DNA of 58,765 nt, counting the filler, from Sphacelaria rigidula (taxonomy: Eukaryota), in the NCBI GenBank assembly GCA_964200075.2. It is 7 parts of 7 records of this genome, joined end to end, with 100 filler letters (N's around TTAATTAATTAA, not from the genome) between each part and the next. Parts side by side here need not be neighbours in the genome. Positions count along the whole stretch, not along the records: positions 1 to 8,311 come from CAXNAA020011568.1; 6 more parts are not named here. The stretch is one strand, 5' to 3'. This document shows, piece after piece, positions 1 to 41,172 of this stretch. The notes beneath the pieces are model-generated. The model was not told the DNA's origin and ran no database searches. It saw nothing but the letters and a program-made list of their open reading frames with translations. Every line of letters begins with the position of its first letter. Positions within the stretch are counted from its first letter, which is position 1. The translations under genes and the position numbers were made by a program.

Positions 1-1180
1 AGTGTGGGGAAAGCACTGTTTTAGGCTTGAGCCTCATCTCGAAGTTAAACCTCAATTCTCACAATTTGTTGTTACTTCAAAAACTTCACGGAGAGACTCT
101 TGCCTGACTTGTGCGTCCTCCAGCTCAAGGGGCGTCCCCCTCTGCTGTGCGCTTCAAGTTGGTCTCCTCCTGTCTGCAGGCTAAACTGACTCTTAGCTGC
201 TGCCCACTTCTCCTTAGCCAAACTCCTCTAACAGAGTGCCGGAAGAATATCTAGATATTGTTGCCTCTGCCAGACGATCTGGACAAGAGGACTGTCCACG
301 AGGGACTCCTCCAGTAGCACTGGCCTCGTGCTCGACAAGTCCTTTCTTCTCACTTGCTATTATCACGGAGGGATCCTCTACAGACCACATCAAGAGCTAA
401 ACAGCAAGGGGCCACACAGATAAGGGTCATCAACCCAGGATCCCCTGTCCCCTGCCACTGCTCCAAGCATACATGCGGTTATAGTGAAACCTACGGCTTG
501 GTATAATTTGGCTACGGGTGGGAAAGGCACAAATGGTCACCGTCTGCAGCTCAATCGTTTGTTTTTTTCACCTCAACCGGTCTTACATCAACGAGGTTTT
601 GCTTTCCAGATACTAGGGGAGTATCCCACAGTCAAACCTCGGATATTGGGTTAATTGACCGCCGGTATCGCTATCACCTGACAATCTAAAAGGATCCGCA
701 AATACTCTCGGCGACACATGCAACCACATACCTCTTATGTCTCATAAGTGATGCCGTTTATGTTTGCACGGGGCTTTTTCGTGTCCGATGTTCTATAATG
801 GGTGATCGTTTGTTTCATATCTTCGGCGTTTCTTCCGTTGAAATAATGTTTTATTGCCCACCCACTGCTACCCTTCGTGGGCAAACAAAAGTACGCAAAC
901 AAAAAACAGTCGGCCCGAAAATGGTCGTATTTCGAAGTTTTGCTCCCTTCAAAAAAAGAGAATCAAGCTAAAATATCGAAAAAGTATATGATAAAAAACA
1001 TATGTATGTACAAGGTTCTCCTTCGGGAGGTTGGTACGGTCCTCCCAGGGGGTGACGCAAGTCGATAATATAAAATATACTTCGTATGTCGTCTCAGTGT
1101 ACTGCTAAAGAAAGCGTGGATAAAAATGACTTGCTGTCAGAGAAACCTCGGCAGAAGTGGTAAAAATGTGATATGATACG

Positions 1181-1537
1181 TGTGTGGAAGATACCTCTTT
1201 GCAGTGACATATCGGAGACTGATGCCACACATGTATGACGAACCAGCGCAAGCAGGGACAAGGTAGGAACGGTCCGGAAGGACTAGATTACCGAGGACCC
1301 TGTAATGCCGACGTAACCAGACAACTCGGGGTGATGTCAGGAAGAGCCCAATATTAAGACGGTCCAACATCCCCCGAGGTACTGGTCGCGACCACTTCTT
1401 GTCTAACTCTTTCTTGCCTACATATACAAGAGGAAATCATCGCCAGCCCGGAAGTTCCTTCGGCACCAGGACGGCAGTCTCCCCCGTAGGTCTCTGACTA
1501 CTCTAGCGATACGCCTTCCTCACGTTGGCGACACCAG
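1181..1537 (+). mobile_element. LTR (about 344 bp) followed by a putative primer-binding site; truncated LTR retrotransposon 5' end
   Basis: Starts TGTGTGGAAG (1181) and ends CTTCCTCACG (1524), an imperfect terminal inverted repeat of the TG..CA type. It is followed after 1 nt by TGGCGACACCAG (1526), a TGG-initiated PBS-like sequence. No gag ORF is recognisable downstream. Confidence 0.55.
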
Positions 1538-1704
1538 AACAGAACTCAGGCAAGACAGGCCTTAAAGGTAAAAAACTAGAACGAAAACCGACTGCTCACC
1601 GACACCGGAAACACTATGGTCCTCCAAGGAACGCAGTCCAGGTGAAACGGATGGGCCATGTGCATAGTTATTCGTGTTGAGAGCTTATTGAAGTCATGTG
1701 TTTG

Positions 1705-1905
1705 GGTCAACGCGAAATTGGCTCCCTCAATGTGCATATATGTGTCACCCGCATGACTAATGAAAGAGCGAATCGCGAAGTTAGACTCCTCCGGGTGTAG
1801 TATGTGTCACCTGTATGGCTAGTCAAACAGTGAAACCGCGAAATAAGTCTCATCAACGTGCATCATATGTCACGAGAATGGCTAATTAAACAGCGAAACC
1901 ACACT
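1705..1905. repeat. Degenerate tandem repeat, about 3 x 62 bp
   Basis: Recurring tatgtgtcacc...atg(a/g)cta.t.aaa.agcgaa.c.cgaa units at about 1740, 1801 and 1866. Confidence 0.55.
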
Positions 1906-1911
1906 ATCAAC

Positions 1912-2160
1912 GACTGCTGCCGAGATAGCCCCCCCCCCAAACCGGCCAAAAATGTGCACGGAGGCGATGATCATAAATGCCGTTAGAGCTGGTTTCGTGT
2001 TCCACGACGCGACTTATTTGGGCGTTATAGCTATTTCGGACTGCTATGAGCCTTTCATGTGGGCGGCATTGCTGCAAACGAGCCCAATAGTGGGATCGCA
2101 GCCGGTTTGTCGGACGGACTCCCGTGCACTTTTTGTGGGGGGGCTATCTCGGCATTAGTC
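1912..2160. mobile_element. MITE with a 4-bp TSD (CAAC)
   Basis: TIRs gactgctgccgagatagccccccc / ggggggctatctcggcattagtc, flanked by CAAC at 1908-1911 and 2161-2164. Related to the element at 3776-4040. Confidence 0.75.
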
Positions 2161-3230
2161 CAACCAACCTTTCACCACCATAGTGCGAACGTCACGGCAA
2201 TTAATCAAGCAGGCCGACCTCTGGAACCGCGGTGATTCGAAATAGCATTGACAAACAAAATGATCTGACCTGCGAATGCACGACCTTGTCATACCCTAGC
2301 ATTTAGCAAACGAAAGAAAGGGAGGTATATTGGATGGTCTTACCGCATCCCAGCCCACAAGCTGAGAGGAGTCGAAAACTACAGACAGTTCAAGATTCCA
2401 CACCTCATCACGCATGAAATGGAGAAAAGTGTCAACCGTCTGGAAAAAATATATATCGGAGAGATGCGGGTTTCTTGGTCAGTACGGTAACTGATTCCTG
2501 CAGCGGGGCACCAAAACAGCCCTCAGTTGTGATGTGAAGGTACATACTAGGAGCAGAAGCTGGAAAGAGCACGGTGAGAGTTGGTTCCTAAGCAGCCTTT
2601 GGAGCAGCTGCGGGAAAAACAATACACCACACGGAGGACCATCATCGCCGAACATGTAGCTCAACTTGTTGAGGCTCTCAACCATGCTACATTCTGCGCC
2701 GTACCCCAATGAATCGGTAACGTTACATCCCGCGCTGACACAAGTTCAACCGGCAGCCAGGAAAAATCAACAATGTTGTTAGCAGGGGCTGTTGATTGTA
2801 AAATCGAAACACCAATCTTCCTTTTTTCAATCTGATCTTGGACGATCACTGTTATGACTCATACAACGCATCATCGCTCGCCAGGTATACAGATGCGCCC
2901 CTAGCGCTATCCTGTGCATCAGCCCGTGTGAGAGTCGCAGCCAGAGTGAACGGTACCCTCGCTGAAAAAACACAACCGATTCCGCAGCACGTGTGCTGTG
3001 TAAGAGCAAAACAAAAAGTTCACAAATGAACACCCGGTCATCATGGCAGCTGATGATATAAAACCAGTACCACAACGACCCATCCATCTCAGAAGCGCGG
3101 ACGGTTCCCCCATAAAAAAGCCTAGAGTTCATTCATTTCGAGCTTACTTTGGGGATAAAAATCCGGCCAACAGGAGCGTTTTGTATTACCTGATCTGGGG
3201 GCGGATTGTCTACTACTAGACAGCTCCATT

Positions 3231-3443
3231 ATGAAATGAGTTTTGAGGAGGCTAGCCAGTATGCGACAAACATACGAGGGAAGTACCGCCCGCAAGTGCC
3301 TTCGATCATTTTCGGAGGGGTGGGGCGTACTCGTTCGTTGCTTGCCTTAGTCGTTTGACTATTGACCGTTCGAGACACTCACAAACGATACTTCCCTCGG
3401 GTTTTTGTCGCATACTGGCTAGCCTCCTCAAACCTCATTTCAT
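3231..3443. mobile_element. Fold-back MITE with about 55-bp inverted arms; carries an internal fragment of retroposon family A
   Basis: atgaaatgagttttgaggaggctagccagtatgcgacaaa is inverted by tttgtcgcatactggctagcctcctcaaacctcatttcat. No clear TSD. Confidence 0.7.
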
Positions 3444-3487
3444 TGATCAACCTCTTTTTATAGAATCCCCTGTTATAGAACGATATT

Positions 3488-3772
3488 TTCGTGAGATTGA
3501 GAGTAGAGGATACGATTTAGAGTGAAGATCGGCCAATTAGTGAATTATTAATCGTTTCAGTTCCGAAATACCCCTCCGCGAGGCCCGACATGCTTCCTGT
3601 AGTAGCATTCCACTGAGGCCCTCGGTATCACTAAGTACGATATCGATGAGTAACTGTAAGCACACGCCAGTCATGGAAGCAAAGAAAAGCACACACGGAA
3701 TGAAAAAACGGGCAAGTCAGATCGAATGATCAAAGCCATTCTCAATCAGCGCTCTATTCTCGATCTCACGTT
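3488..3772. mobile_element. Inverted-repeat element (MITE-like)
   Basis: cgtgagattgagagtagagg..gatttagagtg (about 3490) is inverted by cattctcaatcagcgctctattctcgatctcacg (about 3740-3770). The same arm recurs at about 50295-50347. Confidence 0.5.
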
Positions 3773-3775
3773 TCC

Positions 3776-4040
3776 GACACTTTCTACGATACCCCCCCCC
3801 CCAAACCAGCTAAAAAAGTGTCACGAAAAAAATGGCCATACAGCGCCTGATGTTCGGGTTCCGGCTGCATGAAGCGCCTCNNNNNNNNGCGCCTCATATT
3901 GGCGACATTGGCTAGAATGAACCTAAGCGTGGGAATCCCCAGCTTCTCGTTGTGCTAGGATTTTCCCATTTCGATTTACGTGAAGATTTTGTCTCCCAAA
4001 ACCGTGCACTCTTTTGGGGGGGGCTATCGTAGAAAGTGCC
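3776..4040. mobile_element. MITE with a 4-bp TSD (TTCC)
   Basis: TIRs gacactttctacgatacccccc / ggggggctatcgtagaaagtgcc, flanked by TTCC at 3772-3775 and 4041-4044. Confidence 0.75.
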
Positions 4041-4604
4041 TTCCACAGGTCACGATTCCGAATGCACACCTTTGGCCGCAACGCACTCATTACATCACAT
4101 ACCTGCATTTTCTGTTGCAATGAACTAATAAAATAAGTATTTTAATCAATTACTAAATATATTATTAAACATATTACGAGATGTATAATTGAATAAATGT
4201 TGAAATAAATACTTTTTTCAAAATATTTAGATAAATATTCGAAAAAATAAACGTTAAATAATAGTTCAGTAAATTAAGCAAGTGATTGATTAATTGCCTA
4301 ATTGGTTGGATGGCTGGTATGATGTTGGGGGTGGATTATTATTTTGTGGGAGACGGGAACACAACAATCTAGACTGCTGCAGTATGAGCCCGCTGCATGG
4401 GAACGCAATATAGTGTCTGTAGTATACAGCATGGTGTATTCATATAGGACAACACCCTATATTATTTACTAATTAGACTGCACAGATGTATTGATCCCAA
4501 CTACTGTGTTGTTCATGTGTGCGACTATGCTGGTTGAGTGCCCCCAGGGACATCCCTACACAGTTACTCCACAGTTGCACTGCTGTGTATATGCTCACCG
4601 AAAA

Positions 4605-4920
4605 CACTATATTCGTGAGATTCAGAGTGTAGTTTCAGATTCAGAGTCAGGATTTCAAACGGAAGACCTGTTTTCTTTGTGGTCGATTCGTATGCGAAAC
4701 AGTTCGCGTCACTAACCAACCAACATTGGAGGCTGTGAAAACACGCACGTTTATTACTCGGATTGGTTGATTAGTGACGCGACCTGTTTCGCATAAGAGT
4801 TGACCACGAAGAAAACAGCGTTCTTCCGTTTGAAATCCAGGATTTCAGGGAAAACAGTTCTTCCGTTTGAAATCCTGACTCTGAATCTGAAACTACACCC
4901 TGAATCTCACGAATATAGTG
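4605..4920. mobile_element. Fold-back element with CACTA...TAGTG termini and about 120-bp inverted arms
   Basis: cactatattcgtgagattcagagtgtagtttcagattcagagtcaggatttcaaacggaag has its reverse complement ending at 4920. The two opposite-strand ORFs share HYIREIQ.VVSDSESGFQTE. No matching TSD. Confidence 0.7.
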
Positions 4921-4952
4921 TTCGAAGGAGCGGGCTAACCCATAGGTGTTAA

Positions 4953-6671
4953 CCCGTGAAGTACCGGCGCAGAGATGTTCCTGTGGAGTCAGTGTCGCGC
5001 CAAAGGGACAAAACATTCTTTTCGGGACAAAATCTGACCGCTTTGCCCTCTTCTAGTGCGCACTGCTGCAGCGCACGACATCAGATATATCGACTTGGAA
5101 TTGTTAACTGTGGTTTGCACAGCCTATGAGCGATGTTTCAGCGCCTCGCAGCGGCTGCAGCGCGCTTAGGGTCGTGCGCCACGAATTACGCAGCTCTACA
5201 GACTGTATGCCGACCGGTATACTGTAGATGGTCACGACCCAGAAAGGGCCGTAGTACAGACCGGTGCCAGTTTGCTACCGCATCGGCCGTCCACTCGCTT
5301 AACATGTCTAATTTTATGCATCTGCGCGTGCATATTTTCATTCGCCTGGAGTGCGGAAAGTCTGGGCTGTCGTACAGCCTATTTGAGGGCGCATGGACGG
5401 CGTTCCCCGAAATCGCTTGTGGCCATGTTGTAGGAAAGTCTTGGGCCCCACTGCGCGGCGCACATATTGTCTGTGTTGTGTCCGACGAGTGTGCAAAGTT
5501 TCATGATGGAACGCGCAGTTGCAGGCGAGATATCCACAATAAACTTGCACTGGGAAGTGGGAGTTTACCCTAGGAAAGTATGAAAGTATCCAGAAAACAT
5601 GAAATGCGGTTACGTACGCCCTGGTTACGCCGTATCTCAGATGCAGTTAAGCAGTACAACGGTACGGGTACTGTCTGGAGACCTTACATTGCATCGGCAT
5701 ATTACAGCTGATACTGTACTTCATATATTGGTCATGATGGAGTTTTCATATTTATTTCAAATCCGTCAGCTGCCCCGCCAGACATGGATGCAAACGATCG
5801 TGCCGTTCTCGGTTTCTTCGATAGCAATTGAGATGTTTATTTTTCAGGCGGATTGCACACTCCATATGCAACGCCCTAGGCGTGGTGATGCGCTGGAACG
5901 CGAAGCGTGGTCGCCACCTATCGCCGTACCATGGGGCCCGCAAGGAACCCGTACCGAGCAACACCATACACTCCACCGAACGCGGGACACAATGACGTTC
6001 TCAATCTGCAACTTGCGTCGACAATCCAGCCTTAAACATAGCATTTCAGATATGCTGCATGTTGGGCCGTACGTCCTCCCTTTGGGGCACCTCGCTTGTA
6101 TGAACTACACCTACTTGCGGATGATTCCAGCTGATATTCATACGATCACTCTTGTATGCGAAAATCTGCACACGTTCGACTTTCTTTCTTTTGGTGCAAC
6201 ACTGGTAGACCTGGAGAAATGTACATAAACAATGATTGGTACTCGATTTTACTTGGTTTCAGAATGAAGAAAAATCTGAGAAAATTCACGATTTGGGGCA
6301 GATAAGCAGTGGTGAGCAGTAGACCCAGGTCGTCCAGAACGTGCTTTGGTCCAAAGTCGGCTCAAAGGTATCGATTTGAGCTCTCGAAATGCGTCGATTT
6401 GAGCTCTCGCAAAGCACGCTTTACACAAGAAACTGCACCCCCCTTGCCCGAGACTTCTCGGTATACCTTGAGAGTTCTCGGTATACCTTGGTCGATGTTA
6501 GGGTTAGGGTTAGCGTTAGGGTTGGTGGCATATCTCCATAGTGCCAATCATTGTTTGCGTACATTTCTGTAGGTCCCCTCTGTGAAGCACTTGTCCACGG
6601 ATGCATCTTTGTTTCAAGGACATGTCTGTCATCCCTGTCACACGGACATCCCTGCGCCGGTACATCATAGG
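4953..6671. mobile_element. Non-autonomous piggyBac-like element (degenerate right end)
   Basis: Left end TTAA|CCCGTGAAGTACCGGCGCAGAGATGT. The right end acatccctgcgccggtacatcatagg|tgca is its reverse complement with 4 mismatches, and the right TTAA has decayed. An internal TTAGGG-like tract lies at about 6497-6523. Confidence 0.55.
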
Positions 6672-7258
6672 TGCATCATTTGAGGGAGCTCTCTGTTACG
6701 GGTCGCACAATCACAGCGATTTTGTCACCCCCCTGCGCTTGTCCTCCACAGCTGACCGACAGTGAGGACGTTTGCCCACGTGTGTACTTTGTTCAACTCG
6801 CCAACGGCTCATTGCACGGTCTTGGTTTTGCTGCTGACTAAGACGAAGGCAATGTTCAATTTTCTTCAACCTATTTGCTCTCATGTTCTCTTGACACTCG
6901 CTGCATAACCGCTGTCTTCGTGCTCCCGAATCAACGAGAACGCAAAAAAATACCCCGCCATGAACAGGCTTTTGTTGTTTAGGTTCCTCTTTCAAGTTTT
7001 CCATCATCTTGTACAGGCTTTTGTGGTTCGGGATCGACACCCAGCAAAAAAGAGTCAGTGTGGGCGACTTTCGATGGCCAGAACACGCGCCACAGGTAGC
7101 AGATGACACCCAAACCTGAAAGGTAATGTACTGCTACGCCTCCTTCGTGCACTGCAAAAGAAAGCGTGTGATAAGATGCCTTGCCGCCGGAGAAAACTCG
7201 GCGAAAGTGGTGAAAAATGTGAAATGATGCATGTACATATATATATATATACATATCA

Positions 7259-8090
7259 CACCCTGGACAATACAATATGTTTCCAATACATTATGCCCGC
7301 CCAATAAGTCGATGCGTCTCGCGTTCAATATATATTGGGCGAGCAATATGATGGCACGAGAGGCAGGTCGATATATATTGTGTAATCAATATGTCAAGGC
7401 TCGTGACATGCAATATATATTGACCGAACAATATATCACGACACGCCATCTTAATATATATTGGCCGATAAATATGTTGGTGCGACACGGCGCCAATATA
7501 TATTTGTCGACAATATATTGGCTGCCACACGAGGTCAATATATATTGACGATTCAATATACTTGACACCTTGAGTGCAATTATATACATATATATATATT
7601 GCCGCCCCAATATGGTGTACTGTCAATTCGTCCAATATATATTTTGGGCGAACACTACGCGAGGGATTCGATTTTCACAATATATATGTATTGGCTGAGC
7701 AATATGTATTTCTGGTTCAATGTATATTGGCAAAGGTATATTAACTAGTGCGGCGGGCACTTTGATGTCAACGGGCGCCATCAAAATGTGTGCCACCAGA
7801 TACCGAAAACATTCAATATATTCTTCCGCGGGCGTGTCCAATACATATTGGCTGCCCAGTATGTATGCGGCGAGCGTGCACAATAAACATTGGAAACACA
7901 CTACTTTTGCATGGTTTACGTTCAATATATATTGTGGAAAAGATATGTTACGCGTCGCTCCGACTCGATACATATTGAGAAACAACAGAAGCAATACATA
8001 TATTGAACGTTTTGCTCCGTGTATATTGGCATGCGTCACTTCGCGATCAAGACACGGGGAATATATATCAACAGCCGATTGTAAATTTTG
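7259..8090 (+). repeat. CACCCTGGACAA terminus followed by a 42-bp-periodic array of palindromic CAATATATATTG motifs (probable subterminal repeats of a CACTA/CMC-type DNA transposon)
   Basis: Palindromes at 7326, 7369, 7411, 7452, 7494, 7536 and 7839, 7881, 7923, 7966, most followed 6 nt later by a CAATAT-like half-site. The terminus matches the TIR of the MITE at 28963-29128. Confidence 0.7.
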
Positions 8091-8311
8091 GGGTTCAACA
8101 CTAAAATGGGGCTGAAGTCGCATTTCTATATTGCAGGGAAGATACGAAAGAGTAACACAGAGCGGAAGTATCTTCCCCCCCCAAACTCCGCAGGAGGACT
8201 TAACCGTCAGACCGCGAGAGTAGGTCACCTGCTGAATTGGCATCAATATTCACTTGGAAAAAGTACACGTGGTCCAGATGGACTACCAACACCGCGGTCC
8301 AAGGGTTAAGC

Positions 8312-8411
8312 NNNNNNNNNNNNNNNNNNNNNNNNNNNNNNNNNNNNNNNNNNNNTTAATTAATTAANNNNNNNNNNNNNNNNNNNNNNNNNNNNNNNNN
8401 NNNNNNNNNNN
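8312..8411. other. Artificial contig linker N44-TTAATTAATTAA-N44; the same linker occurs at 16721-16820, 25130-25229, 33539-33638, 41948-42047 and 50357-50456
   Basis: Identical 100-nt spacers with stops in all six frames, spaced exactly 8409 bp apart. Confidence 0.98.
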
Positions 8412-9185
8412 CCCCCCCCCCCCCACCCCCTTCAAAAACTCGAATTTTCGGTCTTGGGGCCTACGTGTTCCGAAATATATTTTTGGTAGACCCTTGGTAT
8501 GGCATAGATATCTGCTTGATCTCAGTACTGTACCTTTGATGTCGTGTACTACTTGGCTTTAGTTTTCTTCGGTATTGAGATGCACATGATTGAGCTGGGC
8601 GAGGTTGCGCAACTACTCGACTAGAATGTAGAGCCACTAACTACGTGATTTTAGTGTCTTTCCCTCCCAGCTTTCAGATCTTGATATATTGAACATTCCC
8701 TCCGGGAGCTGGGGCGAGGGGGGGGGTTATGCTCATGATATTGCAGCGTGGGCGCGGGAGGGGCCAGGGGTATTCGAAACTATTCCAGTCTACGGGTACC
8801 GTTGGTTACGAAATTATCAGCAATATAACCAACTTGAATGCACAACGTTTCAGTCTTCACTTTGTCCTCTATCGCACAAGGGAGTGTCCTTCGAGCGGAT
8901 TGTTTCGGAAGACAAAGCACCCATGATGATATGCTGTGTGTCTAGGTATTCTCGTCGTGACATGTGATCATCCTTTGCAAATACGGACACAAATCATCCG
9001 GAGATGTGAAGCACGCACAGGTCAGTTGCCGATTCCCGTTCCGTCGTAAACGCTGTTGTAACTTCACGGCACTACTTCTTCTTTTAGGCCTATCGCCGGC
9101 AGTGTTTCCGGTATTTCTGTCATCGTGACAGGTAAAGAGCGGAGTGTCTCGATATTCCACTTGGGGCTTCAACCTGTGTTCTCAC

Positions 9186-12100
9186 CTCGGCCTCTGCTGT
9201 AGCTACCCTAGACTCCAGCTCCCGCCCGCTTACGCTGTCAATGCCCTTCAAGAGAGACGAATAGCTGCGGGCACCCTCTCCTGGAAGCAGTACGCGCGCA
9301 CCCCTGCTGGATGCCCTTCTGCCGGCGTTTACTCTACTTTTGCCGGCGGTCGTGCACGCACTTCGTCGACCCTTGGCGTTTTTCACCAGGGTGGTTGCTC
9401 GTCCACCTCGCGAGGAGACTGCTGCTGCTGTTCCGGTTGTCGTTGTTGCGGGGTGATTTTCGCTCATCAAATGCGATGTTCCACTTCGGGGTAATACTTG
9501 TACCGCGGTTCCGGTTCCTCCGTTGTTGCCGTCTTGGTTGGCAACGAGCAGCGATGATGTCGACGTATGGTCTCCTGCGAATCTTGGCGCCAACAACCGG
9601 TGTTGTTGAGCCTGTTGGAGATCAAGAAGCGAGCTTCTGAAATCAAGCTGCGGGTGCGAAGATAGGTTCGTTCCGTCGGCTGTTTCTTCCTTGCTGTACA
9701 GTGCAAAACGTTCTGCTATTGTGGCCGCCTCCCGCGTCCCAACAAACGACCTGTCTTGTCGCGCGATGCCCCCGCCGCCCTCACCGCCCTCCTGTTGCTG
9801 CCGCCGCCGCTGCTGCTGCTGCCACAGTAGATCTTGTTGCTTCTGCAGGTCATCATGACCGGTCACGGCAGCAGACAGCACCGTTTCCTGAGAGGGTGTT
9901 TGTGTCGTTTCACCTTGTTGCCATTCCGCCGCGTCGCCTTGTTGTTCCGGTTCACGTCGACGTTCGTCTTCCTCGGCGGCAATGATGGCGTTTCCTTCAC
10001 GTGCTGTTTTATCTTCTCCGCAATCCCCGCCACCTCCGGTATCACCACCGCCGCCCCTGCCGACATCACCGAAATCCCAAGCATCTCCCCCACTTCCCAT
10101 TAACCCCGTAGCCTGCCTAGCCCCAGCAGTTCGGGGGAAGCCAGGAAGCAATCCACCGGCGGGGAGGAAACGTTTTGTTGACCCGGTGCTACCGCCCCCT
10201 CCGCCGAACATTGCTGCCCCGCCCGGCGGCCTCGGTCCCATGCCAGCAGCATAATATTCCGGGAAAAGGTCTGACGGCGCGGAAGCACACAGGCGATCGG
10301 CGCGCATCTGCCGTCGCTTTGCTTCTTTGTCGAACTGAGGTGGAGGCGAATGGTTCCACGCGAGAGGTTGTTGCAGGGGGGTGGCGTGTTTTTCAAGGTG
10401 TGACGCAGGCAGGAGGGAGGCTGGGTGGGAGAGGTTTTCAAGACATTTGCCGGTCATATGTTTCAATTGTGCGAAGAAAAAATGAAGAGATCAAAAAAAA
10501 AAAAGAAGACGAGATAAGCAAGCAAAAGAATCCCAATCAATTAACACAACGGTTCATTCTTTTTTGGTCGCGGTCATGGAATGGATTCCACTTTGATATC
10601 GTCATGACTACATTTATTTGTGAGACCTTTCCCGCAGGAGCAGTTTCATATTGTATTGAAAATACGATCGAGTCACGATTCGTCGTATTGGCATACATGA
10701 ATGATCGGCAAAATGACCAAATATCTCGCAGCCTAGTGTTCTCTTTTGTCGTGAAAGGGTTTCGGTAGGCCCCTCAGGCGGCGCATGCCTTTTGATGGAC
10801 CCTCAATCGATCGTTGGCTACGTATGAAACGCAAGTATTTTTGTTTCAAACGTTGTTCAAAGTAAGCCAGAGTTGGGGATCGCATCATTGTGGGTGATGG
10901 TCACCAACACGGAGGAGCTATACTCAGCGACAGCGTCTGGGTGACTGGCGCTGAATGTCAGCCCGCGCTATTGTTCCGAAAGCCGCCCGTCGCCCAAGGG
11001 GTCATCATCTGCGGACACCTGAGTCTGATCGTCATTTTCCAATTAAAAACGACACTTATCCGACAGGTCGATCCCTCTGGGTGGTCAAAAGGGTTAAAAT
11101 ATTTCTGGTCTCGACCGTCCAAACATCCACAGAATAAACACCAGTTGGTTGGTATTCTCCGTCAAGAGGATCCTCTCCCCCCCCTCCCCCCCCCCCGCTG
11201 CTATCATCTCGTTGGCTTAGCTCTGATTTCCCACTGCAACCCCTCCTCTACCAGAATACAGCGAGGGAAACCATTTATGCCCAATATTTCAACAGAGGGG
11301 CGCAAGCACGACGCAGAGACACACACAGCGTGAGGCACAACCGCTCATCACCGTAGTGTCTTTGGGGCTTAAACGCCGGAGAGCCTCCCAGCAGAAGCAA
11401 GGACCGTACATTCGACAAAAAACGAGCTCCAAAACGAAGACGACGACAAGTACAAACAGGGGGAAAACATCGACGGGACAACATTATATAACCAAGAAGG
11501 GAGCATGAGGCCGCATGTGAGGCCACGTCTTGTGGGGATTGGATGTTTTTCTCCGGATGGTTAAGTTTGAAACATTTGACACACGTTTCGCCCTCCTCCG
11601 CAACCTAAAATAACCCCCTACCATATGTTTCGGACACCATGCGTCGCCTCGGCGAGAGAAGTCTCGCCCACTTGTCCGATTCGTCAGGCCCCGACGTTTC
11701 GAGAACGGCCGCTGACCAACACTCCGGTCGGAGAGGGAAAGCTGTTATGCTGTTGAAACATGCAAAGTTTTCGCACATGGGACAGCTTACGACCCGTCTC
11801 GCATAGCTGACCAAGGAGGACTATCACATCTGTTGGCCCAGCATGATAAAATGCCAGACCGCAGGGTCAGAGAATCCTAAGCACAGCCCTTGCGGTACAC
11901 CGGGTGCGCGGCGTCCAGCGCTGTAGGTAGACAGTATGGGAAAGGGGCCAAGTGAGGTGCGTCGTGATCTGGATCAGCGCACCTACAATAAGTAATATAT
12001 AGGTATATCATGAGCTGCACAACGTGTGAAAGGTTCCACGTTGTCCTGACATTTTCCCCCGTTCTAGATGAATTTTCGTTCAGTAGCCGTTTCCAACAAA

Positions 12101-13970
12101 CCCTCGGAGCCGACTAAATCAGACACGTGGGCTAGACTCCTCGCAGTCAGGCGATGAGTAGTGCTCAACAAGCGTGGTAAAGAAGATTTTGAGTTTCGGG
12201 GCCAAGCTGTGTGTGAAATTTTGTTCAGAAACCCGGAAATCTAGGTTTAAAACATTCAATGCTCGCCAGAGGTGGAGCGATCAGAGTTCGTGCGATTTTT
12301 GCTTGGAGTTTCGGGTTTTGGGGGCACTTTTGACAAAGATTTTCTCCCCTTAACAGGAAATGACCAGACGCCCACCAGGAAGTGTGTAACCCGTGGCTGT
12401 CTCTGGAAGTGGCGATGCCAGAATATGAAGCAACTCATTCGAGGCCATCATCCAAATGCAAGATAACCAGTACGCTCCGGGCCGAACAATCTTAGCAGGA
12501 TGCAGCTCACCCTTCGTGCGACTCGCCGAACATATCACGGTACTTCGTGCTTGGTGATTGATCGCGAGCCTGGTCCGACGAAACCCCGGTGTGCTCCGTC
12601 CCGGCTTTGTAGGGATGCCATGTCAATGATCCTACGACTGCGGCACGCAAAATCATGAGTACACCCGAAACAGGAAATGTCGCCACCACCTGTCGTGGAT
12701 ATCTTACATCATGTCGCTGAGGCTGAGCCTCGGCTGGTGTTCGGGGACGACAGTCATATGACGGGGATAGGTTATCACCTTTCTTTGCACTCCTCCCGCA
12801 ACCACTGAGCGGGTTGCCCGCGGTGGCAACATTGCGAAGGAAAACAAATGTTTGGGCTTGGATGAACAGGTCGTGTGCATGCGGTCAGGCCTCGATAGTG
12901 ACGAACGGTCAGATAAGATCGTGAATTTACGCATCTACGCTCTCAAGCATCCCGCCAGGGAGAGACAGTCGATAGTAGGGAGAGGCCGGGAAGATTTTGG
13001 ATCCGAACATAACTCAGCTGAGCGGTTTTTATATATATATAGATCGGTGGACTGGGAACAAGTCAAGGTTTCGATGTTTGCGCGCGTCGATGGCACACGT
13101 TCGGGATGTGGGATGACGCGAAGATCTTCAAGTTTAGCTCAGGCGCTCCCTTACACCTTCGAGCACTTTGATGTCGTAAGCGCAAACGGGTCTTCACACG
13201 ATTTCAAGAGAGGTGAACTCAAGCTGTCGCAAACTGCGTTCATCCGACATGTTTAAGGGCGACTTTTCATCACGAAAACCGCCCGGAGCCCCCCGTATCG
13301 CCTACTTCCTTTCAAGGCCGTGAAAGGAAGCAGTAGTGTCCGGGGTAGGCACTGGGAAGCGGTAGGCCCGGTCATGCGGCTCTTCAACGTCGGCCGGGAA
13401 TCGGTGCCGCTGTCATCGGTACATATCGACACAGCGAGAATCCAACGCCCGTGGATGGGTGTGGGGTGTTGAAGATGTCCCAGTACCTAAGCTCCACTCC
13501 AGACTTCGGCGTTGCGTATACTGGGGGTTCGAGTGATGAGTTGTCGGCGCATGGGGATGTTGGGTACGCTGGAGCTTATGATCGGCGCTCGGTGTGGCCA
13601 CACAGGGGCGATTCTTGTTTTGTGAACCCATCAAAATGTTCTATATCGGAGACCCAAAAGAGCAAGACACCCTTTATAGCGCAGGTTGAACATGTAGCGA
13701 CTGGGGGTGTGGTCAAGGAGGCACTCTTTGTCGAGCGCGGTGCTCAAATTCACGCGGCCGTACGTGTAAGAGGTTTGTATTCCGATGACCACGTACGAAG
13801 ACAATCAAAGGTGCGTTCAATCCGCGAATAATCCACAGAGTTCCCCAGAGGAGTGGATCATCGGTGTAGGACGGGCAAACACACGAATGCGCGGCATCGT
13901 TACTCGAGGGAGTCGTTGTACGTGTCGTCAGCTGAACAGCGTGCTGACGTGTTGACAAAACCATGGTTGC

Positions 13971-14010
<40 letters not shown>

Positions 14011-15592
14011 CTCGGTGCTAATATTAATGCCTTGATGAACATCGCAGAAAAGTAATTTGGAGTATTCGGTATTTACCCGCACAATGAACAAGGAAGATCT
14101 CAAGACCATTCAGCTAACAACATAAAGTAAACATCTGCCAGAAGTCGTACAGTATTGCAAAGCTAGCTTCTGAGTATCCACCAACCACTATTTCGGCCGG
14201 CCGTTCAACTAGCCAGAATTTCGAGGTTTACCTGTGTGCCATCGTGCTGAGGAGGCTTGTATTGTCCCATACCTTCCATCTGGGATGTAGCATCTACCTG
14301 GGATATCCATGTGAGATATCCATATCTAACTGAAATGCCTGCCTGGAATATCCATCAGAAATTTTCATCTGGTGGGACATATCCCATCTGGTGAGCAATA
14401 TCCACCTGAAAAAAATCCGAGCGGGATTTCAGATTAATCCAAGTGCCCTTCTGCAGTAGTTACGGATGAACCTCGCATACATCGTTGGTGTCCGCGGAAA
14501 TGATTCACCTTGGGCAATCCGGATAGGCACCCATATGTCACGCGGATGTACCGAAAATACGTCAGAGTTAGGGTTGGATACTCCACGCAGATATGTCACA
14601 CGGATATTCCACATGGAATCCGAGGTGAAAATGACATACTAGATGGAAGTCCCGAATGGAAATGATTTCCCAGACATATATTTCGGATATATATATCCAT
14701 CCGGTGTATCTCCGACGGATATGACACTAAAGATGGATATTCCAGGCACGTGTGAACTTCCGTCTGAGATACTATGTATATCCCAGGTGAAGTTCCATAC
14801 CCCACATGAGTATCCTGGATGGACATAACTCCCCAGATAAATACTGTACACCAGGTGTATGTCGTATCCATTTGGGGTATCCCAGGTATACACCAAATTC
14901 CAGGTGGAGATCAAAATAAGAAACAGAAAAGGTAGAACAGAGTCCACTAAAACAGAAAAAACATGAAATATAGAGACGAAAAAAGACAAGAAAAGGCAAG
15001 AAAAGACAAGACAAGGAAAGAAAAGACAAGACAAGGGAATAAAAGACAAGGACAGACAAGACAAGGACAGACAAGGGAAGAAGAGAAAGGAAAAAAAAGG
15101 AAAAGAAAAGAAAAGAAAAGAAAAGGAATGATCGGCCTCTGCTACATGGCTCCTGCGGAAAAGTCTCGCGGAAAAGGCGAGGCAAGTACCACGACAGAAA
15201 GATCTTACCCTGCCCGTTTCCTCGCTCTCGTGTTCACCATTACTTCCTCTCCTGCTATGGCGTATTTCTCTTTTCCTCTCCCTCTGTCCTCGCTGTTTGC
15301 CTACGATATGTTCATGTTCATATTTCTGTTCTGATTATTCTCTTCCACGAGTTTCTCGAGTTTCTCGAGTTGCATCGCCAGTGTTTCCGTTCATCCCTTA
15401 CGTACGGGTACGCCCCGCTTGTGGCGACGGTTGATTTCGTCATGGATCAGTTCGTGCGCGACAGTCAACCGACCAATCAATCAATCAGGCAATAAACAAA
15501 TCAAGCTATCCGTCAATAACCACGCCAAATAAGGACGGACAGCAACCCATTACCATCGCATATACCCATGGCCAACGCCAAAAGGAGCCCAA

Positions 15593-15637
<45 letters not shown>

Positions 15638-15806
15638 TGATTGTTGCCTCAAGCCTGGTGATCTCCGCCATGAGCTTCCCTTTCTCCTTCCTGGCGATGT
15701 TCAGCTCCTTCGTCAGCTCCAGATTCTCGGCCACCCTTAATAAATTCTGTTGTGCGCCGTTCTGGCGCTCTCGCCCTAGTGCCTTCCGCAAGTTGCAGAT
15801 GCCCTC
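9186..15806 (-). CDS. Partial gene for a coiled-coil protein resembling the CFAP57/WDR65 C-terminus, with a long low-complexity exon; exons 15806-15636 and 10334-9186
   Basis: Exon 1 (cag|GAG..AAG|gtgtgt, 171 nt) encodes EGICNLRKALGRERQNGAQQNLLRVAENLELTKELNIARKEKGKLMAEITRLEATIK, which resembles the RIMQEN..LIKEIN.LR.E segment I recall from CFAP57. Exon 2 (cctcag|TTC..GAG|gtgag, 1149 nt, phase 0-0) is G/Q/T-rich and ends ELESRVATAEAE. The exons are better supported than the family call. Confidence 0.6.
12360..12666 (+). mobile_element. Retroposon family B 3' fragment; other copies at 15860-16180 (-), 19680-20000 (-), 27695-27745 (-), 33702-33775 (-) and 50457-50622 (+)
   Basis: Shared sequence ...gtgctccgtcccggctttgtagggatgcgaggtcaatgg...gcatgcatgatcATGAGTACAC followed by a C-rich run. 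The 5' ends are variably truncated. Confidence 0.7.
12850..13975 (+). mobile_element. Degenerate Ty1/copia retrotransposon RT-RNase H fragment
   Basis: Frameshifted remnants GLDEQVVCMR..KIVNLRIYALKH (RT), LKLSQTAFI, SQYLSSTPDFGVAY..D..YAG..DRRS, YEDNQ and LYVSSAEQRADVLTKP (copia RNase H ADxLTKP motif). Confidence 0.85.
13975..14008. repeat. (GA)n microsatellite
   Basis: Direct reading of the sequence. Confidence 0.9.
14297..14886. mobile_element. TA-flanked MITE (Tc1/mariner-like) with GGATATCC-type internal repeats
   Basis: TA|CCTGGGATAT...GTATCCCAGG|TA, with many gatatcc/tatccat variants inside. Confidence 0.55.
14980..15127. repeat. Purine-rich (AAGAC/AAAAG)n low-complexity tract
   Basis: Direct reading of the sequence. 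Confidence 0.8.
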
Positions 15807-16339
15807 CTGTTTTCCATTCCCGTGGCAAAATCGGAGTACATCAGATAGGCTAGCTTGACGGGGATGGAGGGGGTGTACTCATGATCATGCATGCCAAAGT
15901 CAGAAGACCATTGACCTCGCATCCCTACAAAGCCGGGACGGAGCACTCCGGGTATTCGCCGGACCAGGCTCGCACTCAATCACCAAGCATGAAACGCCGT
16001 GGTGTGTTCTGCGAGTGGCATGCAAGGTGAGTTGTATCCTGTTAACAGTGTTCGGCCTGAAGCCTACTGACTATCTTGCATTTGGATGACAGCCTCCAAT
16101 GAGTTGCTCTATTTTCTGGTATCGCCACTTCCAGAGACAGCCACTGCTTCTACACTGCCTTATGGGTGTCTCACCATATGGGATGGAGGGGGGGGAGTCC
16201 TACCACTTTTGTCTTCGGTTTCTCTTCGTGCTCTTAGCCGTCGACCTCCTGCCCTCCTCGGAGCGTGAGCTTCTAGTAGTGTCAAGGGGTTAACCCGGCG
16301 GTACAATACCTACCTTTCACTCGTATTTTTTTTCCTTCA

Positions 16340-16670
16340 TCCCCTCCTTCCCCCCCCCAGAGGAGGAAATGGGGGACGTAAGCGAACGTGGCATGAAATC
16401 ATTTGGTGCATTAGACAGAAGGCAGGAACCGATGGCTGTACTAGGAGGTACATGGTGGCAACAGAAGATGGCGAAACAGGATGGAGATGAGATATTATGT
16501 AGAAGGCTTTCGTGTAATGTATGGAAGAAACGCAATGAGCACCAAAATGTTGGAGGTGTCTCTATCAGGGGTAGGAACGGTGCTCCGTTCCGAAAGGAAT
16601 GTGTGGTCAATGGTCAAACGACTAAGGCAAGCAACGAATGAATACGATGACCACCCTCACCCCCGCACCT
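16340..16670 (+). mobile_element. LINE (non-LTR) family A 3' fragment; other copies at about 16870-17330 (-), 22310-22390 (+), 26221-26720 (-), 33805-34250 (-), 51110-51248 (-) and 3316-3375 (-)
   Basis: Copies translate to a CCHC-like ORF2 end (CPC....ESR.H.V..CELYKEER...GD.WW...K..GD.I...L.N.WKKR). They end ...aaggcaagcaacgaatGAGTAC followed by a C-run. Confidence 0.75.
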
Positions 16671-17742
16671 CTCCAACAGCAATCGCCTACTCCCAACACG
16701 GCCATCCCGTATCCGTCAGCNNNNNNNNNNNNNNNNNNNNNNNNNNNNNNNNNNNNNNNNNNNNTTAATTAATTAANNNNNNNNNNNNNNNNNNNNNNNN
16801 NNNNNNNNNNNNNNNNNNNNAAACCTCCTACAATGTCCCCTAGCTCGACTCTGTACACGAGTCACCCTACCCATCCGGGCGTCGGTCCTCAACATGAAAC
16901 CTTTTACATGTCTCATCACCTTCCTGATTCGCCCTCTTTGCCCAACATTTATCTCCTATAACAGTATATAGCGATTGTTTTCTCCCTACCATCTCATGTA
17001 CCAAATGATTCCATGCCACCTTCGTTCACTTCCCACATTTCCCGTTCTCACACGTCCCGTTCCTCCTTGTATAGTTCACAATTTGCCACTTCACGGGTTC
17101 TACTCTCTATTGCTCTTGGCACATGGGCAATTCTGTCCATCTTTTTCCTGCTCCACCCGACTACTGGTACACTTCTTCCTTCTTCCTGGGAAGTCCAGGT
17201 CCCCCACCCGAAATCGCACTTTGCAACCATTTCGACAGCCCACTGGGCCGTGCAGATATGTGTCCACGCCCTATCGTCTCTCTCAACCCTCCGTTCATCT
17301 CCAGGTGCTCTTCCTCATTTACTTTCCGTCTTAGCGCTGTTTTTCTCTTATTTCTAGCATGCCCTTCACCTTTGTCTTGTCCATGATATTCCGATTATTG
17401 TTGAGCAATGCTACGGTAAGGGTGCACTTTTTGCGCGAAATGTTGTCTGGTTCACGGGCTCCCAAAGATTCTAGACGCACAAGAATATGGGTCAGGGCAC
17501 CCCCGTTTTCAAATTTATTCGGGACATCCCTACGGTAGCACATTGGAGTAGTTATCCTGGCGTACTCTCACATTTTTCATAAGTCATGTTTGGCATAAGA
17601 TGAAGCGCTCCTAACAATTCTAACCTCAGAAAATATTTGTGCACCCCTACCGTAGCATGCCTCTGTTGGCAAAGTAACTGCTTGTGCCTGGAACAATAGC
17701 CAGCGCCCACCCACCCACCCACCCCCCCTGGTATTCACGTAC

Positions 17743-20700
17743 CACCTCCGGACATGCCCAGGGCTATTTCTCCGTCGCTTAATTCATCCTCAGATTCAGA
17801 TTCGTCCCTTTGTCCCAGCAGCGTGTTACCGTTATCCCCATCGTCATCGTCTGACTCCATCGCAACGCGGGCAATACTGCTGGTAAAAGCGTTACCCGAC
17901 CGTCGGGCTAGGACGGACCTGCCAAAAAACGGGAAATAAAGGAAATATGTGAATATATCACGGTTAGGACCAATCCTCGCCGGTTCGAGTCATGAAATCC
18001 ACGATTTCTTAGGCCTGATTGCTCGAAAGAGATAAAAAAAAGTCGGCCGTTGGTCAAACAGGTCTCCACGCGACTTTTGCGCCATTTCACGTGCCTGGGC
18101 TGCGCGTACCTAGGTTGCAACGCTAGAAACAAAGCCTAAGGATTGATCCGTATGGTACGAATCACTTACTCTAAAATCAAGTAATTTCCGTACGAATCAT
18201 TCATTCGTGCGGCCCTTGGAATATATTCATTACCCCTTGCGGAGAACCGAGGATCTTTCACGAACACTTACGAATTTGAGGCGACGTCATTTCCAACAGG
18301 TTAGACCAACTCTTATGGGAGCCGTTCAAAACCAGCAACAAAAGTTGTGCACGATTTTACACCATCTGTAAAAAAACACGTCTTCCGTGTGGTTTAGATT
18401 TTACTGTAATAGGGGGTCAGCTATAGTTATGTAGCGTGTCCCCTCACCACCCGACGGCGATGAAGGTGTGTTGCCTCGTCGCGAGACTTTCCTACATTGC
18501 CGCATGAGTATGATCACCTGTTGTCGCTGACGGGTGTAGATACACCGGATGTTCCGCTCGATGCGCCAGTATCCTTCATCTGACCAGTTTCGTTGGAAAG
18601 TAAACCGATCCACAACAGAGGGGGGAGGGGGGGGCAAGGCAACACAGAGTCGACCCCGGGGAAACAAGACGGCGAGAAGCATAGAAGCAAGAAGGCGAAA
18701 AAGCAAAACAGCAGAGACACAGAGAAGCAGGGGAGCAACACGTCCAAAATCAGAGGCCAGAGGTGAAAAAAAAAACATGAGCAAGGATTCCAGAGAGTCA
18801 GAGGCAAAAAGCAACGCGACCCGGACAAAACGACAGGCGAGAAAAAACTAATTTAATCAAAATGACAAACGTAAGCAGAAGCAAGCGCGAGAGCTCAAAC
18901 GACAAAAAGAACAACAACAAACAAACAAAAAGAGCTAAAGGCAACGCAACGTAGGGCGGGGCGAAATAAAATAAATAAATGAATTGAAAACGAAACAAGG
19001 AAGCACCATGCAAAACATTTATGCGCGTGTTATTTCCATTAAATATATACTCATCTACGGTGCACACATATATTCATGTATATGTTTGATCCTGCTTCGA
19101 CAAAGCCGTTACTTGAAAATTTAAAAATCCGACACATATTGTTCTGTACTTCTCTGTACTTCAGTTCTTCAGACTTTTCTTAATCAAAACACTGAAAGTG
19201 AGAAACGCACGTCCTTGGGAGAAGGGCGGGCGAAGTAGGCCTGAAGACTGGTGAGTAGCTTGTGCATGGCGTAGTTCTGCCTCTGCTGGTTGTGAATCAG
19301 CCCATACACGTTGGCCCCCAGGTACTGCGGAGGCCGCGGCTTGGGAAAGTCGGGAGGGTACGGCTGAAAAACCTTCGCCGCCGCTGTCTTGCCCTGAAAC
19401 ACGAAAAGCCAAACGGGCACGAGCACGAGCACGGGCACCGGCACGAGTACGAGTACGACTCAGTGTTTCGTTGGGTTTTTTTTCCAGCAGACGGATAACC
19501 AGAGGTATCCTGGAATGCCCCCTATATTTTTCAGCCGATACATAACCCAGGTAATCTGGGATATTCGATGTATCCACAAGATATACTGGATCTTGATGCT
19601 TGGTGCCCTACCCCAATCACCGGCTAAATAGCTCCAACACCTCTACGAAAAAAAAGTGAGGGCAAGGAGAGGAAGGGGGCGGGGGAGGGGGGGGTGTACT
19701 CGTGATCTTGCATGTCAAAGTCACGAGGCCATTGACCTCGCATGCCTACAAAGCCGGGACGGAGCACGCCGGATTTTCGCCTGACCAGGCTCGAAAATCA
19801 CTCCTCACGCGCGAAGCGCCGTGATGCATTGGGCGAATCGCATGGTGGATGAGCTGCATCCTGCTAGGGATGTTCGGCCCGAAGCGTACTAATTATGTTG
19901 TACATGGATGACAGCCCCCGATGTGTTGCTTCATTTTCTGGCATCGCCACTTGTACAGACAGCCATGAGTTACACACTTCCTCATGGGTGCCTCCCCATC
20001 TCAACATCATACGGTACGACAATTCTCATTTTCACTCCTTCTCTCTCTGTCTCCCTCTTTGGGGAGGGGTTACGAGACGTACGACGAAAAACCACACACG
20101 AAGAGAAAGCAAGCCAAATGATACCATACCTTGATGCGAAAATCCCCACGGGGCTTGAACTGAAGTAGCCCGCCGCACGCCCGCTTCGTGAACAACTCAC
20201 ACAGGACGCCTCCGTCCTCGCCGGTCGCTCGCTGCATTAATCGAGCCGCCAGGTTGACGCTGTCCCCCTACACGACAAGAAAATATACCGCAAAATCAAG
20301 AAAAATACACGAAGCAGGCCATAATTCGACAACCGCTACCCACAGCGTAGGCAAACACACGACGAGGAACAATGCAAGTCACATTCCCCTTTTTACAGCA
20401 GCACTTTCAAGTCAAAGCACACATGAGTACATGTACATAGATCAAGCGTATACTGCTAATCTGTTCAGTCCTGGAAAGACCCCTAAGACCCACCACAAAC
20501 AAACCAGCAACTCTAACGCATGGAGCAACAGGCACAATGCGGTACAGTCACGGCAATACTGAGAGACGCGCAATTTCGTGCCATACTCCGGCGTGTTTGT
20601 CATACTCCAGCGCGCGCGTGCGTTCTCCCTCTGCCGGGCGCATGCTATTTCATTTTAGTCCTCTTCTCTTTTTTTCACAAAAATTGTAAACCTCCTCGAC

Positions 20701-24203: not shown

Positions 24204-25996
24204 CTAAGATCTCGGCGTCGAGGGGGGCAGTAGCAATGTGGTTAGAAGGTGAGGAGGGGGATAGCCAGGGCGGGGCGGAGGCAAGAGAGGGGGGGGGGGG
24301 GGGGGGAAAATAAACAAAAAAAAAAAAAAATATAAAAAAGAGAGAAGAAAAAAAAGAAAAAAAAAAAACAAAAAAAAAAAAANNNNNNNNNNGGGGGGTT
24401 GGGTGGGGGGGGGGGGGGGGGGGAGGAAGGGGGGGGGGTGTGGTGGGGAAATATTGACAACATGAAATATATATTTCTTAAATGACATGATGAAATAAAA
24501 GTAAAAAAAATAACAACAAAATTAAAACAAAAAGGAAAATATTGAAGTAAACAAAAACATGAAATCTGGGTGACTGATCGATTAATCGATCGTTGATCGA
24601 TGAATGATTGACTGTCGTGCACCAACTGATCCCCCTAGGAACGCAGCCGTGGCCAGAAGATATGGACCTAAATTTATGTACCCTCAACGTAAAAAAAGAA
24701 GAAGAGATAGACGCTAACTGGGTGAAAACTGGAAGCTAGCAGAAAGAGACGCAAAGCGAAGGAAACAAAACGAGAGGAGCAAAATAACAGAAAAAAACTG
24801 GCAGAAGATTCCACGCTGAGGTTGGACGGGGGGCAGAGAGGTCGATGACAATATATATATCTGGGTCCCTGGAAGACTGAATGACTGGCGCACATGGGCT
24901 GATCTGCCTCAACAACACAAATCTACACGTGCTCACAAAACGGACAACACACGTATGTACCTCAAAGCTAGTGGTAAGCACCGTGATAGGTACACTCGCT
25001 CAAGAAAACTTCAGAATAGGCGGTAGAGATTAACAAAAAAACTAGGAGAGAAAGGCGCCACGCCAAGGTTCGCGGTGCAGGGGGGGGGGGGGGGGGGGGG
25101 GGAGGTGGTTTGTGGTGGAGAAAGGGGAANNNNNNNNNNNNNNNNNNNNNNNNNNNNNNNNNNNNNNNNNNNNTTAATTAATTAANNNNNNNNNNNNNNN
25201 NNNNNNNNNNNNNNNNNNNNNNNNNNNNNAACAAATTTGGACAATCTTAGAGAAACTAAGAAAATACCGATTCTGCATACTTCTGACGCTGACTACTGTA
25301 AGTATTTGTGAAAGTGCGAGTGCGAGTGGCGCACATATTGTTCTAGATAGTGCTGCGAACGATAGTCTCGGGCTGTGGTGCACAATTTTCCCGGGTGGGG
25401 TGCCTCTGGCCGTTAAAAGGATTGGTTTGATTGATCGTCGCACATTATTTTATCCCGCTGCAAGCGTCTAGCCGTGGTTACATGATGGACGTATGCGTAG
25501 ATGGCGTACAAAACGATGGAGGTTGACATGAAAATCATCTGTATTGAAACGAAGATCAGAAATTGACTGAGGATGGTTACTTCGTCATGTTTTAGCGGTG
25601 CTGCGATGTTGTGTTCTTGCATATGTCGAAATATGAAACATCCCATACGTCTTGATCAAAGACGATGAGGTGATCTTCAGCGTTGACCGCGGGTCTGAGC
25701 GGGGACGATGGACCGCGTGGCTGCGCAGTCACTAATGAGCACTGAAGATGGTGAATGATGAAGAATTACGTATTCACAAATACCATGAACACGAGAAGGA
25801 AGATACTCTCGGATCTGGAATGCTTGCAAATACGAATACTTTTAATGACAAATTGACTCAGCACACCCATTTTGTCCTCAAGGTACTAGTATCCTGGCAA
25901 CTGTACTGTAGTACGCACGAAGCTGTTTTTCTTTTTGTCCATGTTTTTCACTCAACACCCTTACCCCGACCTCTCTGCTTTCCTCTCGCAACGCAG

Positions 25997-41047: not shown

Positions 41048-41172
41048 CGAACTGCGTGCACTCCCAAAGCCAACCTGCGGCACACCCAAAGCCGAACTGT
41101 GTGCACACCTACAGCCAAACTGTGTGCACCCCTAAAGCCAAACTGCGTGCACTCCAAAGCAAAACTGCGTTC
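41048..41172. repeat. Minisatellite, about 6 x 21-22 bp (aactgcgtgcacNCCcaaagcc)
   Basis: Direct reading of the sequence. Confidence 0.85.

Follow-up and report, generated by a model that had tools for sequence, protein, structure and literature searches.

An array of short palindromic sites with a period of 42 bp lies between 7259 and 8069 of the window (the whole stretch of DNA that was analysed, 58,765 bases), directly inside a 12-nt element end. The window consists of seven pieces of about 8,309 bases each, which come from different places in the genome and are separated by six identical 100-base linkers (44 N, TTAATTAATTAA, 44 N) at 8312-8411, 16721-16820, 25130-25229, 33539-33638, 41948-42047 and 50357-50456. 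Because the linkers split the window, features of different pieces are not genomic neighbours. The array is in piece 1 (1-8311), and anything continuous with it ends by 8311; the other sites that share its terminus are in pieces 4 and 7, elsewhere in the same genome. Ends of the CACC(C/T)TGGACAA type are present in three of the seven sampled pieces.

Recognisable coding sequence is almost absent from the window. When all 198 ORFs that reach 85 aa or more, and two further ones, were searched against Pfam, two sub-threshold matches appeared, to Pkinase (25739-26260) and SH3BP4_C (51795-52154); the two longest ORFs are low-complexity, glycine-rich sequences. One tRNA gene was detected by ARAGORN, a tRNA-Pro with anticodon AGG, and it was also the sole match when Rfam was searched over the window; eukaryotes typically use this anticodon. 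Microsatellites and homopolymer runs are numerous across the pieces, and the DNA looks eukaryotic and repeat-rich. Within 24289-24438 are runs of 18 G, 76 A and 46 G and a gap of 10 N (24383-24392), which may be an artefact of sequencing or assembly, and there are many other long runs of G or C across the window. A tandem array at 41044-41175 has a period of 23/45 bp (AACTGCGTGCACACCCAAAGCCA) and 5.6 copies at 81%. Two foldbacks in piece 1, with arms at 4603-4675 / 4850-4922 (97% complementary) and at 3231-3301 / 3373-3443 (85% complementary), are probably other small inverted-repeat elements.

Layout and phase of the array

All features of the array are described on the plus strand. The element end, CACCCTGGACAA (7259-7270), is the outermost part of the terminal inverted repeat; TCA stands immediately outside it (7256-7258), and the inner part of the terminal repeat follows at 7271-7283, with a CAATAT half-site at 7273. 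Read from the motif start, a unit consists of the 12-bp palindrome CAATATATATTG, 6 nt, CAATAT and a spacer of about 18 nt, and each unit carries CAATAT half-sites in both inverted and direct orientation. A degenerate unit (7284-7325; CAATACATTATG, 6 nt, CAATAA at +18, spacer) stands in phase, 42 bp before the first well-kept unit at 7326, which puts the start of the array 25 bp inside the end at 7259. This agrees with the sequence-only reading, which had the array begin just inside a terminus shared with a MITE at 28963; four other ends in the window share it. Units 1-6 (7326-7577; starts at 7326, 7369, 7411, 7452, 7494 and 7536) are the best kept and represent the high-copy core of the family. 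Units 7-10 (7578-7759; starts at 7590, 7633, 7678 and 7718) are more decayed, and the 54-bp step that leads to them is a (TA)n expansion at 7581-7599, by which the phase has moved by 12 bp. A gap of 121 bp contains two decayed unit slots (7760-7838), in which the only surviving half-site is the CAATAT at 7814, 25 bp before 7839. Units 11-14 (7839-8007; starts at 7839, 7881, 7923 and 7966) have the orientation of units 1-6, and an out-of-phase 14-bp palindrome, CAATACATATATTG, is found at 7992-8005. Scattered degenerate half-sites make up the tail (8008-8069). Altogether there are about 17 in-phase unit slots in about 720 bp (7284-8007).

With up to two mismatches allowed, CAATATATATTG matches 22 times in the 58,765 bases, where 1.81 matches are expected (sd 1.32); none of 100 shuffles reached 22, and the largest shuffled count was 5. 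Fifteen of these matches are inside 7326-7977 (four exact, six with one mismatch and five with two), and every one of the remaining seven has two mismatches. For the half-site CAATAT there are 69 matches in the window where 27.6 would be expected, 29 of them within 7273-8028. Start-to-start spacings along the array are 43/42/41/42/42/54/43/45/40/121/42/42/43, which is 41-43 bp in 9 of 13 cases, and the two shorter series reported from the sequence at the outset (43/42/41/42/42 and 42/42/43) were correct on re-measurement. At lag 42 the self-identity is 0.364; in 200 shuffles no lag from 10 to 130 gave more than 0.331. The site grammar and its phase are beyond chance. No further arrays were found in the window by blastn or with a unit profile, the matches outside the array being confined to TA runs and termini. 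An alignment hinted at a higher-order duplication of 7284-7480 in 7839-8030, but a comparison of unit pairs gave no support: of the 24 non-site columns, the cognate pairs agree in 10, 7, 12 and 9, where the mean for all pairs is 8.26 (sd 1.9).

The shared terminus and the copies of the array

The 12-nt end CACCCTGGACAA has five matches in the window with up to one mismatch (7259+, 28963+, 29117-, 52788- and 53074+), where 0.40 are expected, and none of 100 shuffles reached five; when three mismatches are allowed, it matches 60 times and 54 matches are expected. When the five ends are aligned, CACC(C/T)TGGACAA is common to all (CACC-TGGACAA being invariant) and the sequences outside differ, similarity between the elements beginning at the shared 12-nt end. 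Further in, a GTACTGC-TA block is common to the ends at 28963, 29128 and 53074, and in part to that at 52799; the array-bearing end has just about 20 letters in common with the others. The shared end is adjoined by CAATAG, CAATAA or CAATAT in the related small elements.

The single complete element among these is a 166-bp foldback MITE (28963-29128), which has CACCTTGGACAA at both ends, CAATAG subterminal motifs, and arms of 87 nt that are 84% complementary. It is flanked on both sides by TCA, which would agree by chance once in 64 cases; the other three ends have no partner within the window. In an alternative register the duplication would read AAG, also 3 bp, with a terminal repeat that is 5 nt longer and has one mismatch. 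The direct arrangement TCA...TCA fits a 3-bp target duplication better, since an extension of the inverted repeat would require TCA...TGA. In piece 7, the right end of a related element (52737-52799, minus strand) terminates in TTGTCCAGGGTG at 52788-52799, and 53074-53196 (plus strand) contains the left end of a related element together with its foldback body, whose arms at 53085-53134 / 53147-53196 are 76% complementary; its right-hand terminus is missing or mutated. The two CACCCTGGACAA-family ends here (52737-52803 and 53070-53136) point apart across 266-274 bp, and as 67-nt arms they are 73% complementary. The sequence ACACGTGA is found on the left (from 52712) as well as on the right (to about 53213), as though a single small element had been divided or permuted around the DNA in between. 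Just to the left of the element end at 52799, a 222-bp unit occurs twice in tandem with 84% identity (52174-52610).

Five public runs from two studies contain the window or part of it; four share one organism label and one is labelled an algae metagenome. Logan contigs from four of the runs (X1, X2, X3 and X5) were compared with 6500-8311 at 80% likeness, the comparison passing over 7225-7264 (low complexity/repeat), the span that contains the boundary at 7259. The first six units of the array recur in 77-107 distinct contigs per run, as counted from contigs with another letter at 7404 and 7421 (100 and 102 in X1, 86 and 88 in X2, 83 and 77 in X3, 107 and 95 in X5, on a scale capped at 128). 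Among the matches listed, pieces fit 7265-7477, 7302-7544, 7325-7558 and 7365-7560; they differ from the array by about 10-20%, also in the spacers, and span five units along with their spacers. One copy matches from 7265 on, and the same contig has 978 upstream letters foreign to the window, which places the start of its similarity about 6 bp inside the proposed end. Since the spacers are common to many contigs, they are part of the repeat family and were not acquired; they are unique within the array yet not within the genome. The sequence-only reading had looked to spacers held in common by genomic copies as the evidence against spacer acquisition, and acquisition is indeed excluded by the match of about 80-85% across the spacers among the listed pieces.

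Contigs identical to the array locus have a depth of about 67-77 in X1, 12 in X2 and 4.5 in X3. Summed contig depth, which is not equivalent to copy number and to which other organisms may contribute, amounts over 7293-7597 to 45,000-122,000 in X1, 5,500-17,000 in X2, 1,100-4,500 in X3 and 18,000-56,000 in X5; the count of distinct contigs is the firmer measure. In X1 the summed depth is 163-1,260 past 7598 and 4,000-22,000 over 7842-7963, and it reaches millions from 8086 on, where other elements start. The number of units varies among copies (joints 7431>7864, 7562>7874, 7446>7512 and 7555>7295). A further joint, 7383>7481, links the array to its own opposite strand at one locus in three of the four runs (X1, X2 and X5), as expected of a foldback derivative.

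On the left, the array-bearing end is preceded by a (TA)n run (7237-7256) and by a repeat of a different family, a second copy of which lies at 1097-1183 (79-86% identical). The two copies diverge at 1184/7235, precisely at the start of the (AT)n run and the CACC end. This upstream family (6744-7234) is itself of high copy, with a summed depth of up to 685,000 in X1. On the right, a different high-copy repeat starts at 8070, which means that the array element is interrupted or truncated there, and loose contig ends before 8070 were seen in 87 contigs of X2 and 103 of X5. An inverted copy of the end was not found in 7300-8311 at up to three mismatches. None of the window's 198 ORFs of 85 aa or longer matched a transposase family in Pfam, the array element being cut at or before 8311. 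No coding part of the array copy lies within the window, and by 8070 the copy is either interrupted or truncated.

Beyond this point, an element of about 100 bp (8200-8309) is flanked by TTAA left and right, and its inverted ends (CCGTCAGACCGCG / CGCGGTCCAAGGG) are imperfect; on this account it looks piggyBac-like. It has the highest summed depth of the window, 2-3 million in X1 compared with about 70 for the contigs identical to the locus. Loose ends in other copies of this element read ...TTAACCCTT before 8210. One of its ends has the core CCTTGGAC in common with the CACCTTGGACAA end, which may be coincidence.

Conservation within the array and its interpretation

We consider it likely that the array forms the subterminal repeat region of the left end in a class II cut-and-paste DNA transposon family of high copy number, where it would serve as a phased binding platform. 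Its position at the end of a mobile element, already proposed from the sequence, is borne out by the shared 12-nt end, the upstream repeat that stops at 7234, the copy that fits from 7265 and the recurrence in 77-107 contigs per run. Conservation within the units follows the sites. In ungapped pairwise comparison of 14 units, identity is 0.85 in the 12-mer (an inflated value, conserved partly by construction, since the units were anchored on it), 0.29 in the 6-nt linker, 0.49 in the half-site and 0.25 in the 18-nt spacer, the last being the identity expected from composition alone. The half-site columns were left out of the anchoring, and their 0.49 is therefore an independent signal. Within the motif, the non-TA flank positions C1, A2, T11 and G12 hold 1.1-1.6 bits, against no more than 0.7 bits in linker and spacer columns, and because these letters are conserved a TA microsatellite alone does not explain the motif.

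The spacers had first been described as sharing no similarity. That description stands for identity, which is at background; it does not stand for local alignment, where the mean score of the spacers is 8.03 against 7.63 +/- 0.19 in 300 shuffles, a level that 1% of the shuffles reach. The spacers retain a faint trace of common origin. Tandem Repeats Finder (TRF) called 2.3 units at 79% within the array (7453-7547), where the neighbouring spacers at 7452 and 7494 have TTGG-TGC-ACACG in common and so give rise to the call. Probably the array arose by tandem duplication of a 42-bp unit, of which the sites alone were kept. Among the listed near-fixed private differences in the array (7404, 7421, 7449, 7452, 7469, 7470 and 7488), three of seven fall on site columns, roughly as many as chance would put there, so that no constraint is visible in this copy. 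The array copy at 7259 looks dead.

These properties could also be those of a passive, decayed 42-bp minisatellite inside a repeat family, read by no protein, in which the apparent conservation of the motif comes from picking units by that motif and from renewal of the TA core by slippage. The faint common ancestry of the spacers agrees with it, as do the TRF call and the (TA)n runs at 7237-7256 and 7581-7599, and the bias from anchoring on the 12-mer is real. Alignable spacers had been named in advance as the mark of an old minisatellite, and they are found weakly, in the local-alignment score, though not in spacer identity. The array has the 42-bp period of an ordinary minisatellite and probably its origin by tandem duplication; unlike one, it is conserved in 18 of 42 columns with the remainder at background, and a plain tandem minisatellite was rejected since the units are not alike over their full length. 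A decayed one is harder to reconcile with the signal in the un-anchored half-site columns (0.49 against 0.25), with the conserved non-TA flank letters, with a phase kept over about 17 slots whose spacers are at background, and with a half-site that turns up again within the terminal repeat and, in other element families, next to the same end. On balance we regard the passive reading as improbable.

When metagenome contigs were searched with the array pattern, one locus was returned (L001, 1899-2071), a plain 42-bp minisatellite of 4.1 copies at 94% with the similar unit ATATATATTG, 6 nt, CAATAT, and its existence is a further point for a minisatellite origin. It has no CACC end and adjoins an unrelated 421-aa ORF and CA/TA microsatellites, and it was judged to be unrelated or coincidental.

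A role for the host apart from transposition, as a cluster of transcription-factor sites, a bent-DNA or scaffold site, or a replication origin, would be in keeping with AT-rich palindromes phased on one helical face, and ATTGG or CCAAT can be read in several units. However, that reading is inconsistent across units, no gene was recognised nearby (Pfam, ORFs of the window), the array lies directly inside a shared mobile-element end, and the same array and spacers recur in 77-107 contigs per run, all of which makes a host cis-element very improbable.

Short conserved repeats alternating with dissimilar spacers of fixed length also recall a CRISPR-like guide or immunity array, or the iterons of a plasmid or virus, both of which had been put forward as lesser alternatives. 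CRISPR arrays belong to prokaryotic or viral hosts, have repeats of about 23-50 bp, and have spacers that differ between arrays or strains. Here the repeat is merely 12 bp, the same spacers are present in many genomic copies (77-107 contigs per run), and the host looks eukaryotic from its microsatellites, its high-copy small elements and its tRNA-Pro (AGG). The array pattern had no matches in viral contigs or in 185,579 prokaryotic species genomes, the terminus pattern had none in viral contigs, and no replication or cas-like protein was found among the 198 ORFs. The guide-array alternative fails on the shared spacers, the iteron alternative is contradicted as well, and the chance that either applies is negligible. 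Equally negligible is a protein with a 14-residue repeat (42 = 3 x 14), for which four ORFs of 106-208 aa cross the array on both strands, since none of the four matches a Pfam family, what is conserved is a palindrome in the DNA, no codon periodicity is seen at the variable motif positions (1, 2, 5, 6, 8 and 12; 1.1-1.6 bits), and open frames are to be expected across a motif that lacks stop codons in all six frames. A literature search with three motif strings gave 20 papers containing at least one of them, and the 15 matches listed look like unrelated studies, in which the strings are presumably primers.

For a transposon end, a mechanism can be outlined from the site grammar. The 42-bp unit contains three CAATAT half-sites, two head to head as the 12-bp palindrome and a third in direct orientation 6 bp downstream. 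A transposase, or a separate DNA-binding protein like TNPA, may bind the palindrome as a dimer, and as 42 bp corresponds to four turns of 10.5 bp, successive dimers would be set on one face of the helix. Acting together, many weak sites might fold the end and bring it into pairing with the opposite one for excision, and cooperative folding and pairing of ends has been proposed for TNPA on En/Spm (PMC2613891). Both the protein binding and the effect of helical phase are predictions. As to origin, one 42-bp unit may have been tandemly duplicated in a master element, after which selection for mobility would have kept the sites as the spacers drifted to randomness, and the family would have multiplied afterwards.

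It is possible, though we think it rather unlikely, that the array represents an undescribed family of DNA transposons, CMC-like or other, whose ends carry unusually long series of four-turn-phased triads of palindrome plus half-site. If so, a one-sided, filament-like stack of DNA-binding dimers would extend along about 700 bp of a transposon end. Should an autonomous element be found, the 42-bp grammar would offer a natural test of helical phasing in the assembly of a eukaryotic transposition complex. The main value of the present analysis is for annotation, in that a CRISPR-looking eukaryotic array is read as a transposon end and a very abundant family sharing the CACC(C/T)TGGACAA end has been identified in a repeat-rich genome. 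None of the results challenges current understanding.

Comparison with known transposon systems

Several superfamilies were set aside by the sequences that flank the ends. PIF/Harbinger elements make a 3-bp duplication of TAA or TTA, and the MITE is flanked by TCA/TCA instead. A TTAA target duplication is characteristic of piggyBac and a TA duplication of Tc1/mariner; TTAA is absent at all five CACC-type ends, and TA is not directly outside them. Elements of the hAT superfamily have an 8-bp target-site duplication, and the eight letters on the two sides of the MITE differ (aagtttca and tcaaaaag), so that the one complete element has no such duplication; its terminal sequence is also not hAT-looking. 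The likeness to hAT elements (Hermes, Ac) is in the idea of the mechanism, with a multimeric transposase on several subterminal sites of one end, and a study of Hermes describes an octamer whose multi-domain transposase grips the left end and engages several subterminal sites together (PMC10368747).

The array-bearing family is tentatively placed with the CACTA/CMC elements, a placement that we hold with slightly more doubt than confidence and that rests on three indirect features, the CAC start, the one 3-bp duplication and the subterminal repeats. CACTA (En/Spm) elements have a short conserved terminal inverted repeat with a CACTA core, and the TNPA protein of Spm/En recognises the subterminal repeats (PMC2613891). 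All five ends here retain the CAC alone of this core, the array end reading CACCC. A 3-bp duplication (TCA/TCA) is found at one complete element (28963-29128), and direct and inverted subterminal motifs are both present, in the roughly 17 phased slots of 7284-8007. As in En/Spm, Tgm and Tam1, a short motif is repeated in both orientations over several hundred bp inside a terminal repeat that starts with CAC. A published parallel in size and form is the soybean element Tgmt*, in which a 13-bp CACTA terminal repeat and a 3-bp duplication accompany 24 subterminal repeats packed into 732 bp, with repeats paired so as to form palindromes (PMC2613891); the comparable figure here is about 17 slots in about 720 bp.

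The differences from plant CACTA elements are an end that reads CACCC or CACCT, an unrelated motif, a host that is apparently not a plant, and the absence of a Tnp2-type transposase or TNPA-like gene from the window. Outside plants, the CACTA-related SmTRC1 of Schistosoma shows that terminal cores vary, a CCC core and a 2-bp duplication being reported (PMC1636069). Compared with animal and fungal CMC elements of the SmTRC1 type, the present family has a CAC core and a 3-bp duplication and not CCC and 2 bp. Plant CACTA arrays are described as irregular and asymmetric, whereas the array at 7259 keeps a strict 42-bp period and a fixed grammar of palindrome plus half-site. As the probable end of a transposon, the array is a known kind of structure, and its sole unusual trait is the strict four-turn regularity that it maintains over about 700 bp.
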